A DNA stretch of 64,000 nt from Candidatus Multivoradales bacterium (GTDB taxonomy: Bacteria > Acidobacteriota > Thermoanaerobaculia > Multivoradales > J023): NCBI GenBank assembly GCA_965248925.1, contig CBDFLE010000006.1, positions 1,792,001 to 1,856,000 of the forward strand, given 5' to 3'. How positions within the stretch are numbered: position 1 is the stretch's first letter; each line of letters begins with the position of its first letter. A program made the position numbers and the translations under genes. Under the pieces are notes generated by a model. It did not search any database. It saw only the letters and a program-made list of their open reading frames with translations, and had not been told where the DNA came from. This document shows positions 45,669-57,548 of the stretch, piece by piece.

Positions 45669-45744
45669 TGGCAGGCCAGGAGGGTCTCGAACCCCCAACC
45701 CCCGGTTTTGGAGACCGGTGCTCTACCAATTGAGCTACTGGCCT
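45669..45744 (-). tRNA. tRNA-Trp(CCA)
   Basis: Cloverleaf AGGCCAG...anticodon loop CTCCAAA...GGTTCGA...CCA, 76 nt. Confidence 0.97.
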
Positions 45745-45799
45745 AGAAACTCTGCGGCGCAACACCGGCAACACCGGCGCAACGCCAATCACTTCACAC

Positions 45800-46984
45800 C
45801 TACTCGATGATCTCGGAAACGGTGCCGGCGCCAACCGTGCGGCCACCTTCGCGGATAGCAAAGCGCACGCCCTTTTCCATGGCGATCGGCGCGATCAACT
45901 GGACCGACAGCGCCACGTTGTCGCCCGGCATCACCATCTCCACCCCTGCGGGCAGCTCTGAGGCACCGGTGACGTCGGTGGTGCGGAAGTAGAACTGCGG
46001 CCGATAGCCGTTGAAGAACGGAGTATGACGCCCCCCTTCTTCTTTGTTCAGCACGTAGACTTCGCCGTTGAACTTGGTATGCGGGTTGATCGAGCCGGGC
46101 TGGGCCAACACCTGACCGCGCTCGACCTCGTTCTTCTTGGTGCCGCGCAGCAAGATGCCTACGTTGTCCCCCGCCTCACCCTGATCGAGCAACTTGCGGA
46201 ACATCTCGACCCCGGTGACCACCGTCGTGGCGGTGTCGCGGATGCCGATGATCTCGATCGACTCGCCGACCTTGACCACTCCACGCTCGATCCGCCCGGT
46301 CACTACCGTGCCACGGCCCTGGATGGTGAAGATGTCCTCGATCGGCATCAAGAAAGGCTTGTCGATCTCGCGCTCCGGCTGCGGAATGTATTCATCGCAG
46401 GCGGCCATCAACTCCATGATCTTCTCGCTCCAGGCCTCGTCGCCCTCAAGGGCCTTGAGTGCCGAGCCCTGGATGATCGGGATGTCGTCGCCGGGAAAGT
46501 CGTAGGAACTCAGCAGCTCCCGCAGCTCCATTTCGACCAGCTCCAGCAGCTCTTCGTCGTCCACCACGTCGCATTTGTTCATGAACACGACCATCGAAGG
46601 CACGCCTACTTGACGCGCCAACAGGATGTGCTCGCGAGTCTGCGGCATCGGGCCATCAGCGGCCGAGACCACCAGGATAGCGCCGTCCATCTGCGCCGCG
46701 CCGGTGATCATGTTCTTCACGTAGTCGGCGTGACCTGGGCAGTCGACGTGAGCGTAGTGCCGATTCTCGGTCTCGTACTCCACATGCGCGGTAGCGATGG
46801 TGATGCCACGCTCGCGCTCTTCAGGAGCCTTGTCGATATTGTCGAAAGCGGTGAACTCCGCCAGACCCTTGTCAGCCAGAACTTTGGTGATCGCCGCCGT
46901 CAACGTCGTCTTGCCATGATCGACGTGGCCGATCGTGCCGATGTTGACATGCGGTTTCGTCCGCTCGAACTTCTCCTTAGCCAT
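45800..46984 (-). CDS. tuf: Elongation factor Tu (tRNA-operon copy)
   Basis: Protein identical to the copy at 29059-30243. Confidence 0.99.
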
Positions 46985-47275
46985 GGTGCTTCAAACTCCT
47001 CAAAACTGAGTTGTTGGCAGCTGCCCCCGACCGAGTGCGCTGCCAATCGTCTTTAAAACTCTGACCGCAGGGCTCTCAACACGAAACCCCCTCCGGAGCC
47101 AATCTTGAGGCGCTGACGAATCCTGGCCGGACCCGCTTCTCAGCGAGTCGCTTTCCGACTTTCGCGACCAGCTCCGAGAATCAGGAACTTGACGCCAAGC
47201 TGGCTCTAGAATGCTATCTACCGATCGAATCTCTGGCTAAACCTTCGACCCTTAACGATTTAGCGACCAATCCAA

Positions 47276-47350
47276 TGGAGCCCACGACCGGATTTGAACC
47301 GGTGACCCCTTCCTTACCAAGGAAGTGCTCTACCCCTGAGCCACGTGGGC
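47276..47350 (-). tRNA. tRNA-Thr(GGT)
   Basis: GCCCACG...CTTCC-TTGGTAA-GGAAG...GGTTCAAATCC...CCA. Confidence 0.96.
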
Positions 47351-47606
47351 CGAAGTTTGTGCGCCGTCGTCACCAAGGGTATGCGACTGGCTAGCGAGCC
47401 ACCCAAGCGCTCCGTATCCTCCTGGACCTCGAAAACTCTGGATTCGGTATTTCGTCGGTTCCCGACTTCGGCACCGCGATCAAGCTGACTTGATCGACGG
47501 CCCGCCCGAGGTAGCGCCGAAGACAAGTCCGCGCACCCTACCAGCCGCCCTGTTCCCTGTCCAGAGATTTATCTACGAGGCCAGCTCCGCTGGCGGCGAG
47601 CCAAGT

Positions 47607-47681
47607 TGGAGCGGGAGACGGGATTCGAACCCGCGACCAACAGCTTGGAAGGCTGTGACTCTACCCCTGAGTTACTCCCGC
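47607..47681 (-). tRNA. tRNA-Gly(TCC)
   Basis: GCGGGAG...ACAGC-CTTCCAA-GCTGT...GGTTCGAATCC...CCA. Confidence 0.96.
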
Positions 47682-47718
47682 CGGAACGAGCCCGATTCAC
47701 CGGACCCGCAGCTCCAGT

Positions 47719-47804
47719 TGGTGGAGGCGGGTGGATTCGAACCACCGTAGGTTTACACCGGCAGATTTACAGTCTGCTGCCTTTGACCGCTCGGCCACAC
47801 CTCC
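47719..47804 (-). tRNA. tRNA-Tyr(GTA)
   Basis: GGAGGTG...GCAGA-CTGTAAA-TCTGC, long variable arm, CCA end. Confidence 0.96.
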
Positions 47805-47892
47805 CCGAAATCTCTTCGGTATGCCCGTCTGAAGCGACGGAGTCTCCCCCGATTTCCTCAGACGATGCTTCAAAGATCCAAACTCGCTCGAG

Positions 47893-47968
<76 letters not shown>

Positions 47969-54190: not shown

Positions 54191-54804
54191 AACGGCTACT
54201 AGTCGGCCTGACCGGCGGCATGGCGAGCGGCAAATCAACCGTCGCCCAGTTACTCCGCGAGCACGGTTGCCAGGTCTTCGATGCCGACCGGCTAGTGGCC
54301 GAGCTCTACGCCCCCGACGAAGCCGGCGCCGCTGCGGTGGCCAAGCTATTCGGCTCTGACTTCTTGGATGCCGCGGGAGCGGTCGACAAACCTCGTCTCG
54401 CCAAGCTGATCTTTGCCGACAGCGAGGCCCGGCAGCAGCTCGAGGCGGCGGTCCACCCCTTGGTACGCCAACGCTTCGCCAAGATCGCCGCCGAAGCCAC
54501 TGGGGTAGTAGTCTACGAAGCCACCCTGCTGGTCGAGTCCGGCGCCGCCGCCAACTTCGACCTGGTGCTCTCCGTCGAAGCCGAAGCAGCCACCCGCCTA
54601 CGCCGCGCCATCGCCCGCGGCCTCGACCCAGCCGCCGCCCGCGCCCGCCTCAGCGCACAGGGCGACGGTAGCGAGCGCCGCGCGGGCGCGGACCTACTGC
54701 TGCAAAACAACGGGGGCATGGAAGAGTTGCGCGAGAAAGTCGCGGCGCTGGCCGCCGAGTGGTGGGGAAAAATCGATCCGCAAAACCGGGTGCCAGCCGA
54801 ATAG
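54187..54804 (+). CDS. coaE: Dephospho-CoA kinase
   Basis: (TTG)KRLLVGLTGGMASGKSTV; DAD; LE..VHP.V. Confidence 0.93.
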   Translation: MKRLLVGLTGGMASGKSTVAQLLREHGCQVFDADRLVAELYAPDEAGAAAVAKLFGSDFLDAAGAVDKPRLAKLIFADSEARQQLEAAVHPLVRQRFAKIAAEATGVVVYEATLLVESGAAANFDLVLSVEAEAATRLRRAIARGLDPAAARARLSAQGDGSERRAGADLLLQNNGGMEELREKVAALAAEWWGKIDPQNRVPAE

Positions 54805-54825
54805 TCCACCAGCCATCGAAGAGCC

Positions 54826-54903
54826 GTAGGGGCGCAAGGCTTGCGCCCGCGGTTCATTTTCAACGCGGTGAATCGTAGAGGGCGCACAGCCGTGCGCCCC
54901 TAC
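54826..54903. repeat. GTAG-family REP doublet (REPIN-like)
   Basis: GTAGGGGCGCAAGGCTTGCGCCC ... GGGCGCACAGCCGTGCGCCCCTAC: two palindromic units in inverted orientation, GTAG/CTAC ends. Confidence 0.8.
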
Positions 54904-54961
54904 ATCAAGGCGGGGCGCCAGCCGAACAACCCGCTCCCAAATAACCGGCGCGTCCCGCGCC

Positions 54962-57253
54962 TCAACCCTCCGGAGGGCGCTCCGCACCCACGGGCTCCGC
55001 CCGTCTGGATGCCGGCTCCGCCGGCCCTGGCGCAGGACCTAGAGCAAGGCGGAAGCCCAAGTAGTCGAAGCGGCCCGACGGGTGCCTGCAGTAGCGGCAA
55101 GCCGCACGCACGTCGCGTGCGCCGCTGCTCCACGCACCCCCGCGGATGACCCGGAAGGCGCCTTCGGAAGGTGATGAATAGTCGGGTCGCCAACGATCGT
55201 GGCACCACTCCCACACGTTGCCCAACATGTCATGCAAGCCCCAGGCGTTGGGTCGTTTCTGAGCAACAGGATGAGTCTCGCGAGAACTATTGTGCCGGTA
55301 CCAGGCGATCACATCGAGTTCTGGCGACTTACCCTGGGCATCAGCCGTGAAGGTTCCTTCATAGGTCGCCGTCGTGGTACCCGCTCGGCAAGCGTATTCC
55401 CACTCTGCCTCGGCAGGTAGACGAACGTCCAACTCTGGCGCGGCCTCGTTCACGGCCGCCAAGAAACTCTGGCAATCGTTCCAGCTCACGCGTTCGACTG
55501 GCCGATTCTTGCCCTTGAATTGACTCGGATTTGCCCCGCTCACAGCCTGCCAAAACGCTTGGGTTGTCGGTGTTTCAGCCAACCAGAAACCTCTCTTCAG
55601 AGTAACTTCGTGCTGGGGACCATCCTGGGCAAAGTGCCCCGGCTCTTCTTCCGGCGACCCCATCAGAAAAGTCCCCGGCTCGATCCAGCGAAATCGAACC
55701 TTCACCTGAGCGAAGCTGACCGTCTCCCAGCGGCCGTAGATATCTTGCCCAGAATCAACCACTCGAACCTTGAGTGAGCCAAGCCGCACAGCAAAGGAGA
55801 CCCGAGGCTGGAGACTCGGGGCCGGCTTCGTCGGCACTGTCTCCAGGGCCGGTTGCTCTTGGGCATGGCGCAAAGCAGCGCAGAACTCCTCGACTGTCGA
55901 ATAGCGTTGACCAGGATCAAATAGGGTGCCGCGCTTGAGAACCTGCTTGAGAGCCTCCGAGCAAGTGAGGGGGGCTATCACCGTGGCGGTAGCGTTGATT
56001 GCCGAGTGCGGCACCTGCTGGCCGCGAAGGGCGAAAATCGCCGTCATCGCCAGCGAGTACACATCTGCCGAAGCCTCGACGCGCTTGGCATCGATCAACG
56101 ATTCGGGAGCCGCATAGACGAAGGTGCCCATGGCTGCCTCAGTGCGAGTGTTGCCGGTGCTATCTCCACTCACTTTCACCAGGTCGAAATCGGTGAGTTT
56201 TCCCCTGCCATCGCCGTCGAACACAATGTTGGCAGGCTTGACATCGCGATGGACAATACCCCGAGCGTGAGCGTGCGTCAGCGCGTTGCCAACACTCAGG
56301 ATCACTTTCAAAGCCGCGGCCTCGGACCAGCGACCCCGTAGCCGGGCGTGTAGAAAATCGCCGCCTTCGAAATACTCCATCACGAAGTAATGAAAGCCCT
56401 CATCCTGGGCCTCGGACACGAGCACTCGCACGATCCCCGGATGCTCGCCCAAACGCACCATCTCCCGAGCGCCGCAGAAGAATCGGCGGCGGCGGCTCTC
56501 GTCGCGGGCGAACTGACCATGGAGCACCTTCACCGCGACCACTTGGCGCGTCTTGCGATGGCGGGCCCGCCAGACGGTGGCAAATCCACCCTGCCCGACC
56601 GGCACCTTCAACCGGTAGACACCGCCGAGGAGATCTCCAGGGCGCAGCTGAGCGCCCTCGCGCAAACGTCGCTTCAGCCGCCGGATGGTGCGCTCGACCG
56701 CTCCTGCTGGGCCGCCGGATTCGAGCAGAGCTTCGAGTTCTTCTTCAGCCTTCTCCAGCTGCCGCGAAAGCTTGAGGTGCTCCGGGGTCGGCGGCTCCAT
56801 CCCGGTCGAACCAATGAACTTCGGTAAGAGATCCGGATGTCGATCGCGCAGCAGCGCCACAAGGTTCCCCAGAGCCCAGGTCGAACCGATCTCAAGCGCC
56901 CCCTCGGCGCGGCGGCGTAGCTGGCACTCAGTCTCAGTGGAGATGTTGCAGGTGGCCGCCAAGCGGTAGACCTGCGCTGGCGAATCGCCAGGGTCTTGGA
57001 AGACTTCCTCAAGTGCTGCGAGAGCGGGTGTGGGGCCGAACTGCCGCACCCGCTTGCACTGAACCACCCACCGACGGCCATCAGGACCCACGCTGGCGAG
57101 ATCGACCCCGTGGTCAGCACCCGCGGCACCGGGGTTCGACACCGCGGTGTGACCTTCGGCTTCGAGCAAGGCGAAACACAGTTCCTCGAAGCGCTCGGGC
57201 GCGAGGCCCTCTCGCAAACGGTACTTGATCCAATCGTCGTTCGGTCCCGGCAT
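54962..57253 (-). CDS. Fusion: Mrr-like restriction endonuclease + Ser/Thr protein kinase + FGE-sulfatase (SUMF1/C-lectin-fold) domain
   Basis: FEELC..LL...G...D.GVDL...VVQCKR; GQGGFATV, VAVK, HRDVKPANI, TDFDL, APE; GTFLMGS, P.E.VSW.DC, RLP.EAEWEYACRAG, N.WGL.DM.GNVWEWC, RGGAW, GFRL. Confidence 0.88.
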   Translation of the reverse strand: MPGPNDDWIKYRLREGLAPERFEELCFALLEAEGHTAVSNPGAAGADHGVDLASVGPDGRRWVVQCKRVRQFGPTPALAALEEVFQDPGDSPAQVYRLAATCNISTETECQLRRRAEGALEIGSTWALGNLVALLRDRHPDLLPKFIGSTGMEPPTPEHLKLSRQLEKAEEELEALLESGGPAGAVERTIRRLKRRLREGAQLRPGDLLGGVYRLKVPVGQGGFATVWRARHRKTRQVVAVKVLHGQFARDESRRRRFFCGAREMVRLGEHPGIVRVLVSEAQDEGFHYFVMEYFEGGDFLHARLRGRWSEAAALKVILSVGNALTHAHARGIVHRDVKPANIVFDGDGRGKLTDFDLVKVSGDSTGNTRTEAAMGTFVYAAPESLIDAKRVEASADVYSLAMTAIFALRGQQVPHSAINATATVIAPLTCSEALKQVLKRGTLFDPGQRYSTVEEFCAALRHAQEQPALETVPTKPAPSLQPRVSFAVRLGSLKVRVVDSGQDIYGRWETVSFAQVKVRFRWIEPGTFLMGSPEEEPGHFAQDGPQHEVTLKRGFWLAETPTTQAFWQAVSGANPSQFKGKNRPVERVSWNDCQSFLAAVNEAAPELDVRLPAEAEWEYACRAGTTTATYEGTFTADAQGKSPELDVIAWYRHNSSRETHPVAQKRPNAWGLHDMLGNVWEWCHDRWRPDYSSPSEGAFRVIRGGAWSSGARDVRAACRYCRHPSGRFDYLGFRLALGPAPGPAEPASRRAEPVGAERPPEG

Positions 57254-57548
57254 CCTTCCCAACCTTGGAGCGAAGGATAACAGCCGGCGATAGAACGCCA
57301 AGTAACGTGCCAGCCGAAGAGTGCGGCGGATTCGATGCCCCCGGAATCTAGGTGCTACCGAACTAGGTGCCAACCGCGCACGCCCTCACATCAGGAACCA
57401 CCATCCGCGGTCACGGTTCCCCAGAGCAGATGGACCACAAGCTGCGGCTGGCTGGTTCCTGGCTCTTCTTTCTTCCGCGGGCTATGCTGATGGCACACCG
57501 GCCAATTAGTCGTCGTTCTGGACGGCGACCGGGCCAAGGAGATGCCCC

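Follow-up and report, generated by a model that had tools for sequence, protein, structure and literature searches.

A remote lectin-fold target of a diversity-generating retroelement in an Acidobacteriota genome, very probably rewritten in trans from a template 186 kb away

Several described diversity-generating retroelements (DGRs) act on genes that lie far from their reverse transcriptase (RT); statements on published systems made here refer to the portions of the cited papers that the literature search covered. In the DGR of Treponema denticola, one target adjoins the RT and seven others are dispersed over the genome (PMC6602519). In Thiohalocapsa PB-PSB1 and in the DGRs of RT clade 5, remote targets match the template repeat (TR) at all sites other than adenine and are taken as diversified in trans, and the same work describes both live remote targets and one silent perfect match of this type (Dore et al., 2024; PMC10907252); Pkinase stands among the annotated target-protein domains in the legend of its Fig. 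2. Seventy-six remote targets are reported from cyanobacteria, with the variable repeat (VR) at the 3' end of lectin-fold genes and with N-terminal signalling domains that include Ser/Thr kinases, and cruciforms or IMH (initiation of mutagenic homing) sites are suggested to activate them (Vallota-Eastman et al., 2020; PMC7517822). In phage BPP-1, a GC-rich inverted repeat is found 4-34 bp past the VR and is absent after the TR; the hairpin of phage DGRs has a variable stem and a conserved GRNA loop and is needed for efficient homing (Guo et al., 2011; PMC3240598). In NTP-dependent conflict systems, the FGS domain is always C-terminal and is combined with Mrr-like restriction endonuclease, S/T/Y kinase, TIR or caspase-like effectors, while the TR may be located either close by or in another part of the genome (Kaur et al., 2020; PMC7159879). 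The present report concerns a gene of a comparable kind found in a 64,000-nt stretch of DNA (the window; C6:1792001-1856000) from a Candidatus Multivoradales bacterium, the genome of which (G000) comprises 7.98 Mb in 6 contigs at 62% G+C. The gene encodes an Mrr-like nuclease, a Ser/Thr kinase and a C-type-lectin-fold domain of the formylglycine-generating enzyme (FGE) type, and its 3' end is a VR whose TR lies 186 kb upstream on the same contig and strand. Coordinates are collected in Table 1, where those without a contig name are window positions.

The 3' end of this gene had been read from the letters alone, in a first-pass annotation of the window, as a candidate DGR variable region hypermutated in trans. 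The peptide FRVIRGGAWSSGARDVRAACRYCRHPSGRFDYLGFRLA and the 14 codons listed there are exactly as given, and 13 of the codons end in C. The codon usage of the gene, given the amino acids, predicts 7.4 such codons out of 14 (P for at least 13 equal to 8e-4), and against the plain third-position C frequency of 0.32 the probability of 13/14 is 4e-6; the positions were picked by the reader, and both values are indicative only. A blastn search of positions 55000-55200 against the whole genome (word size 7), by which the annotation had expected a template to be found, returned three matches with 82-88% identity, all on the same strand near C6:1.66 Mb beside an RT gene. One of these copies carries AAC at the codons that are variable in the others, which identifies it as the template. 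This TR (129 nt, 31 A) is the sole one for the window VR in the genome, and its in-frame translation, QKGANRVIRGGAWNNNARNVRAAYRNYRHPSNRNDNLGFRLALA, is close to the pattern of AAC codons that had been predicted. The region proposed for the VR, 55040-55159, does contain one, the true extent of which is slightly longer at the 5' end, and in all 14 flagged codons the TR has A at the first or second position. The window itself holds no RT, as none of the 12 RVT_1 matches of the genome falls inside it, and no template, as the invariant 24-nt core of the repeat occurs there once; both absences had been correctly stated.

Both strands of all 6 contigs were also scanned with mismatches counted solely at the 98 non-A positions of the TR. 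Exactly four sites were found with 35 or fewer such mismatches, and each of them has 0: the TR, the window VR and two repeats in the neighbourhood of the TR, VR1 (C6:1662564-1662692) and VR2 (C6:1659745-1659873). The window VR is identical to the TR at 98/98 non-A positions and is changed at 18 of the 31 adenines (10 to G, 6 to T, 2 to C), while VR1 is changed at 19/31 and VR2 at 12/31 of these sites. The chance of so many window VR mismatches landing on A is 1e-10, when two flank bases are added per side. Most adenines of the TR (27/31) stand at codon position 1 or 2, nine AAC codons being present, and the repeat could give rise to 4^31 DNA variants and ~1.2e16 proteins; AAA is its only codon able to mutate to a stop. 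A coincidence, in which a GC-rich gene simply prefers NNC codons and the C-terminus of the FGE domain is a conserved motif, would agree with the base composition of the genome and with the choice of positions by the reader, but it leaves the excess of C-ending codons over the gene's own usage unexplained, and precisely these codons have A in a template that lies next to an RT. This explanation is hardly credible. Reading of the codon pattern alone can reveal a DGR target whose template is far outside the window.

The FGE domain and a hairpin-bearing tail are common to the window gene and to the two targets adjacent to the TR (target 1 with VR1, target 2 with VR2), as would be expected if the C-terminal piece had been recently duplicated or converted from a cassette target by ordinary paralogy or gene conversion, without reverse transcription. 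However, identity falls immediately upstream of the VR to 55-66%, both against target 1 (four nearest 150-nt bins) and against target 2 (three nearest bins, this target being shorter), and downstream of the VR it drops to 49-71%. Since the remainder of the FGE domain is so diverged and the non-A match is perfect, copying from the TR is indicated rather than recent duplication. Moreover, the window VR and VR1 disagree at 21 sites, and the window VR and VR2 at 17, so that the window VR was copied from neither; a conversion event with a VR as its source would carry over the A-site pattern of the donor, and no donor with the window pattern exists in the genome. An origin without reverse transcription is thus very unlikely. 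As judged from the alignments, old paralogues that share a homogenised 129-nt patch differing only at template adenines are a signature of mutagenic retrohoming, not of duplication or VR-to-VR conversion. The window gene has received a TR-derived copy at least once, recently enough for no scaffold site to have drifted. With its TR and RT 186 kb away and with 18/18 differences at TR adenines, the window VR can with little doubt be regarded as a genuine target of this DGR rewritten in trans, as the annotation had supposed. Remote DGR targets are known, but they are seldom this clean, with one template, three recipients, 98 undrifted scaffold sites and a flanking domain that is ~40% diverged. The remote targets of cyanobacteria, which belong to a different phylum, were accepted at TR identity >50% (PMC7517822), whereas the non-A match is perfect here.

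The TR belongs to a cassette (C6:1659719-1665153, within locus L009, C6:1654001-1668000) in which a long target, an HRDC accessory gene, the RT, the TR and a short target follow one another on the minus strand. Recognition of the RT was based on a Pfam search of the genome with RVT_1. It shows the motifs IGALTSQ and YMDD and shares 35.6% identity with Brt of phage BPP-1 (E 7e-33); [ILV]GxxxSQ marks DGR RTs. The open reading frame (ORF) of the RT comprises 410 aa from a TTG, and because its relatives align from about residue 60-76, the start is probably Met68, which would give 343 aa. These relatives are 44-60% identical (with one outlier at 35%) and include records of Chromatiaceae, Thiohalocapsa and Lamprocystis; own A-biased repeat pairs are present in 11 of their 24 distinct loci. 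A 110-aa cassette ORF was considered as Avd and rejected, as it has no family match and the HRDC ORF, which lies in a different frame, is the accessory gene. The sequence features of a DGR are all found, namely an A-biased TR/VR pair, an RT of the DGR lineage, a VR at the 3' end of a lectin-fold gene, an accessory gene and an inverted repeat past the VR, and the remote target is a VR outside the cassette that matches a TR elsewhere in the same genome.

The HRDC-accessory gene order equals 'Architecture C' of the HRDC class of Wu et al. (2018; PMC5758913). Like the T. denticola DGR (PMC6602519), this one has an HRDC accessory instead of Avd, targets with an FGE-type lectin fold and scattered targets. 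The T. denticola targets are described as FGE-sulfatase/CLec1 only, whereas the remote target here carries a kinase and an Mrr-like nuclease, and in this different host the cassette has two local targets beside a MoxR-like ATPase gene and one for a trypsin-like peptidase. The same pair of genes stands by a target with an unannotated N-terminal extension in DGRs of multicellular bacteria, where a short lectin-only target also occurs (PMC10907252). There are nine DGR loci in Thiohalocapsa PB-PSB1 (PMC10907252), in contrast to three complete DGRs in the present genome. Although the MoxR-like ATPase and the trypsin-like peptidase adjoin target 1, no vWA domain was found in the scanned cassette proteins, and therefore the cassette does not qualify as a vWA-MoxR (VMAP) ternary conflict system.

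The sequence that follows the repeat separates recipients from donor. All three VRs run on with GTC and a partly common stretch, whereas the TR runs on with CGC and unrelated sequence, so that the short flank is a candidate marker of the two roles. Beyond it lie hairpins with a GGA loop, three of them in the window gene, three past VR1 and four past VR2 (stem of at least 4, G-T pairs allowed). Perfect C-GGA-G hairpins with a stem of at least 5 number 94 in the genome on both strands, and other 3-nt loops 44 to 542. Clusters of such GGA hairpins (at least 2 within 200 bp) occur only three times in the 8-Mb genome, each directly 3' of one VR, and the genome-wide scan found none after the TR. The target ORF passes a CTAG inside the repeat and continues for 25 codons (GPAPGPAEPASRRAEPVGAERPPEG) to its end; in this gene and in target 1 the hairpins are located inside the coding tail, which accounts for the odd AEP/AER tail repeats of both, while target 2 stops before its perfect-stem hairpins. 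As in BPP-1 (PMC3240598), a GC-rich inverted repeat follows the VR, whereas none with a GGA loop is found past the TR; the window VR and VR1 are 13-17 nt away from theirs. BPP-1 has one hairpin with a 7-10 bp stem and a 4-nt GRNA loop, and Avd; here, rows of 3-4 hairpins with 4-10 bp stems and a 3-nt GGA loop closed by C-G are accompanied by HRDC, and their placement varies between the coding tail (window gene and target 1) and the region downstream of the stop codon (the VR2 gene). The hairpin rule of MyDGR (7-10 bp, GRNA; PMC6602519) would miss them.

The hairpins are not restricted to this genome. A survey took in two related genomes, G001 and G011, and the loci of RT relatives in records whose titles name Acidobacteriota, Gemmatimonadetes, Nannocystaceae, Alphaproteobacteria and other groups. 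The survey gave 22 VRs in 12/25 loci, 21 of them with enough flank, and 16/21 have at least one GGA-loop hairpin within 120 nt; hairpin density past the VRs is 13.1 per kb, compared with 0.28 per kb over the same loci (before duplicate removal). One locus, L044, is identical to L021, and when this duplicate is dropped 14/19 usable VRs have a hairpin. Those without it are the VRs of L020, L029 and L031, one VR of L040 and one of L053. Across the surveyed VRs the stem sequences vary and the loop is constant. Genomes of the same family have homologous cassettes (L043 and L053 in G011, L044 in G001) with RTs 50-56% identical and two to three local VRs, and GGA-loop hairpins follow all of these VRs but one (L053). 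By analogy with phage DGRs, the GGA rows may play the same homing role as the GRNA hairpin. No description of tandem GGA-loop hairpin rows was found in the texts searched, papers' supplements being outside the search, and neither 'hairpin' nor 'HRDC' occurs in the main text of PMC10907252. The contrast between matching repeats and diverged surroundings isolates what a distant target would need, namely homology over 129 nt, a short stretch of flank and a row of hairpins of a kind that has no other place in 8 Mb, and with it the long-open question of how DGR targets are chosen in trans becomes testable with a small construct.

According to the established DGR mechanism, the RT would copy the TR RNA into cDNA, misreading adenines, and at the 3' end of target genes the cDNA would take the place of the homologous 129 nt. 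The window target would be recognised in trans via the invariant 3' end of the repeat, the flank present only in VRs and the row of three GGA-loop hairpins. Judging from the domains and the relatives of the protein, the rewritten residues would fall in the ligand-binding C-terminal part of the lectin-fold domain, and the whole protein may act as a one-chain sensor in a conflict or defence pathway, in which the variable lectin would serve as the sensor, the kinase as the switch and the Mrr-like nuclease as the effector. A wider scheme can be proposed only tentatively. In this scheme, one paralogue of a germline family of effector-kinase-lectin sensors would have been enrolled into hypermutation via a portable address label (the repeat 3' end, the flank and the GGA row), which would by itself allow an HRDC-type DGR to rewrite any gene of the genome. 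Variable lectin, kinase and Mrr nuclease would form an anticipatory immune receptor in one chain, encoded by the enrolled gene, and the GGA row would represent a variant of the phage GRNA hairpin that is spread over the clade and missed by current DGR finders. Such a scheme, taken as a whole, is possible rather than probable.

A number of observations weigh against the main reading, that of a remote target rewritten in trans. The kinase has DFD in the translation where DFG is expected. Codon 737 reads GAA in all three VRs and AAA in the TR, a pattern which could reflect selection or a fuzzy 5' boundary. No experimentally dissected HRDC-type DGR was found in the covered portions of the texts examined, and the roles of hairpins and flank are assigned by analogy with BPP-1. 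Because the target protein has no close relative (the best non-self match is 52% identical, and its 90% cluster has one member), an allele comparison is impossible. Four public sequencing runs contain the gene; they represent one sample of one study, are stored as contigs, which drop rare variants, and were aligned at 80% likeness. Each of them has one contig identical to the window, and no population variation is seen in these contigs. Furthermore, no remote VR was found in G001 and G011 with the TR queries of L043 and L044 (the TR of L053 was not searched genome-wide), and trans-targeting is not conserved among the relatives searched.

The single allele in the runs and the lack of remote VRs in the two relatives would also fit a fossil target, which was once rewritten from the TR and to which retrohoming has ended, so that the present sequence is a fixed allele. 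There is a precedent, as one remote target, DGR 1, in Dore et al. (2024; PMC10907252) matches a TR at all non-A sites and displays no variation. On the other hand, none of the 98 non-A sites has drifted, the three hairpins and the flank are intact, and none of the reading frames of RT, HRDC and TR is interrupted, the RT match being free of stops. A fossil is rather unlikely, though it deserves to be kept in mind. The other longer pieces over the VR in the sequencing runs match the TR (13 differences in 55039-55154), VR2 (13) and VR1 (19), with one expected VR2 letter (55126 T>A) missing from the listed differences; several pieces of low depth (2-5, with 10-15 differences) fitted no repeat clearly, and nothing was drawn from them. 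A 40-nt query that runs from the VR end into the window-specific flank has exact matches in 0 metagenome contigs. The top protein match among 40 related genomes has just 49% identity, so that there is no orthologue for a VR comparison. The TR query in G011 also gave two weaker matches beside another RT, and an Mrr-kinase-FGE gene of G001 (L015) has no match to the TR of that genome.

Table 1. Positions of the target gene, its variable repeat and hairpins, and the genes of the retroelement cassette
Feature	Position	Strand	Basis or remark
Target gene, Mrr-like nuclease - Ser/Thr kinase - FGE/C-type-lectin-fold	54962..57373	minus	ORF list, translation, Pfam
Mrr_cat restriction-endonuclease-like domain, residues 57-126	56996..57205	minus	PF04471, E 2.4e-7, 31.3 bits, cut-off 21
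Hanks-type protein kinase domain, residues 253-479	55937..56617	minus	PF00069, E 1.2e-36
FGE-sulfatase (C-type lectin fold) domain, residues 563-777	55043..55687	minus	PF03781, E 1.4e-42
Window VR, 129 nt, codons 736-778 of 803	55039..55167 (C6:1847039-1847167)	minus	alignment to TR, A-tolerant scan
Flank just 3' of VR (GTC..CTGCGC..), candidate recipient/donor marker	55026..55038	minus	alignments; proposed role
Hairpin 1, GCCGGC-GGA-GCCGGC, 13 nt past VR	55011..55025	minus	
Hairpin 2, ACGGGC-GGA-GCCCGT	54990..55004	minus	
Hairpin 3, GGGTGC-GGA-GCGCCC, one G-T pair	54975..54989	minus	relaxed-stem scan
Terminator-like hairpin GGCGCG-GGA-CGCGCC, then T-rich run, directly past stop codon	54947..54961	minus	consensus scan only
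Trypsin-like peptidase	first in transcription order of locus L009	minus	
AAA_5/MoxR-like ATPase	between peptidase and target 1	minus	
Target 1, 908 aa, FGE domain 648-862	VR1 near its end	minus	no other Pfam family
HRDC accessory protein, 158 aa	ATG overlaps target 1 stop	minus	E 4.4e-20
RT	RVT_1 match C6:1661203-1661748	minus	E 6.5e-17
TR	C6:1660772-1660900	minus	starts 30 nt past RT stop
Target 2, 301 aa, FGE only, with VR2	after TR	minus	
PIN-domain gene	after target 2	minus	

The domains found by Pfam (Mrr_cat, Pkinase and FGE-sulfatase) agree with the label of nuclease-kinase-C-lectin under which the gene had first been described. The target ORF has 803 aa when read from TTG, and the ATG at 57253, which would give 763 aa, is the likelier start, since a promoter-like site overlaps the TTG, as predicted by a consensus scan only. 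In the translation, the Mrr domain carries GVD...VVQCK, where D...QxK is presumably the Mrr catalytic motif, and the kinase domain contains the glycine loop GQGGFATV as well as VAVK, HRDVKPAN and AAPE. Among solved structures, 2y3c_A (Treponema denticola variable protein 1, TvpA), itself a DGR variable protein, comes closest to the FGE domain (E 3.2e-26), and the NCBIfam enzyme models all score far below cut-off on the target protein. The PADLOC matches, PD-T4-6 (E 1.7e-52) and mad6 (E 3.4e-47), cover the kinase domain only (residues 244-521), and the NCBIfam MAD6 score is 138 bits against a cut-off of 460; the protein is not assigned to PD-T4-6, Mad6 or PglW, the matches being confined to the kinase domain and below the family cut-offs.

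In a homologue search of 5.8 billion proteins, with domains counted by hand, a kinase and an FGE domain are combined in 102 of the 120 matches listed. A TIR-type domain (PF13676, PF01582 or PF08357) is present in 62 of these 102, and the other domains noted among them are EAD (5), DUF4062 (4), CHAT (2), SIR2_2 (2) and Mrr_cat (2). Of the two listed kinase-FGE proteins with Mrr_cat, one is the window protein itself and the other is P0017, which shows 40% identity across 95% of the query; two further listed matches have Mrr_cat and kinase without FGE. In public records the homologues are called 'SUMF1/EgtB/PvdO family nonheme iron enzyme' or 'formylglycine-generating enzyme required for sulfatase activity', names that reflect the fold and not the likely role. 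Hundreds of effector-kinase-FGE proteins bear such an enzyme name, and their swappable TIR, Mrr, CHAT or SIR2 heads, together with the DGR link, point to sensors of conflict systems. TIR and CHAT are named here as in PMC10907252. As in the conflict systems of Kaur et al. (PMC7159879), the N-terminal slot is filled by TIR, SIR2, caspase-like or nuclease domains; unlike in those systems, the window gene stands alone among housekeeping genes, without a MoxR or vWA partner. Kinase-FGE proteins occur in 40/41 related genomes, while RTs matching the cassette RT (E <= 1e-25) occur in 11/41, the studied genome being included in both counts; therefore most members of the family are probably not hypermutated, and the window gene looks like a paralogue enrolled into hypermutation.

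The neighbourhood of the target gene is not a defence island, as pyrH, tsf, rpsB, rpsI, rplM, folD and coaE lie downstream and genes for a DUF3368 protein and a D-serine-dehydratase-like protein upstream, and no MoxR, vWA or peptidase partner is found beside it. Every element of the system is known in kind, including remote targets, HRDC accessories, kinase-bearing targets and hairpins after VRs. What is particular here is the nuclease-kinase-lectin remote target, the host lineage, the sharp homogenised patch in diverged paralogues and the tandem GGA-loop hairpins. No nuclease-kinase-lectin architecture was found in the portion of PMC7517822 covered, nor was this gene or its architecture found described in the other texts searched, supplements with target lists being outside the search; DGRs paired with Acidobacteria received only passing mentions in the literature searched.

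Some further features of the window and genome were noted. Two more GC-rich inverted repeats of the form GGGCGCA...TGCGCCC are present at window positions 54825-54910, in the interval that separates the target gene from the convergent coaE-like gene, whose stop is at 54804; their loops differ from those of the VR hairpins, and they could be terminators or members of a repeat family. A search of the window and cassette with Rfam at gathering thresholds returned only five tRNAs, which form a cluster on the minus strand at window positions 45672-47968. The N-terminal Mrr-like module of the target also occurs in a 503-aa ORF at C6:4544832-4545311 (51% identity to residues 35-197).

The genome contains other retroelements as well. 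A second complete DGR (C6:4814692-4817399) has its TR at C6:4815904-4816028 and its RT at ~4816178-4817065, both on the plus strand, and its VRs, at 4814692-4814816 (11/11 differences at A) and 4817275-4817399 (16/16), are on opposite strands. A third one (C5:145049-147857) has a plus-strand TR at C5:146306-146423, an RT at ~146598-147416 and VRs at 145049-145166 (13/14 differences at A) and 147741-147857, which are followed by single long hairpins with AGA or GGA loops. In these two DGRs together, single longer hairpins with GCA, AGA or GGA loops lie past 3/4 VRs. At C6:4116630-4122326, a 325-aa RT ORF (RVT_1, 112 bits) adjoins an array of ~3 kb, in which near-exact repeats of 37 nt recur every ~76 bp and which looks like an RT-associated CRISPR array. 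The RTs at C5:1072953, C6:2421218 and C6:4643316, with an identical score of 143.4 bits in ORFs of 465-518 aa, are likely copies of one group II intron. Finally, three large RT ORFs of 838-990 aa are located at C6:286704, 308310 and 1642818, one of them only 17 kb from the DGR cassette.

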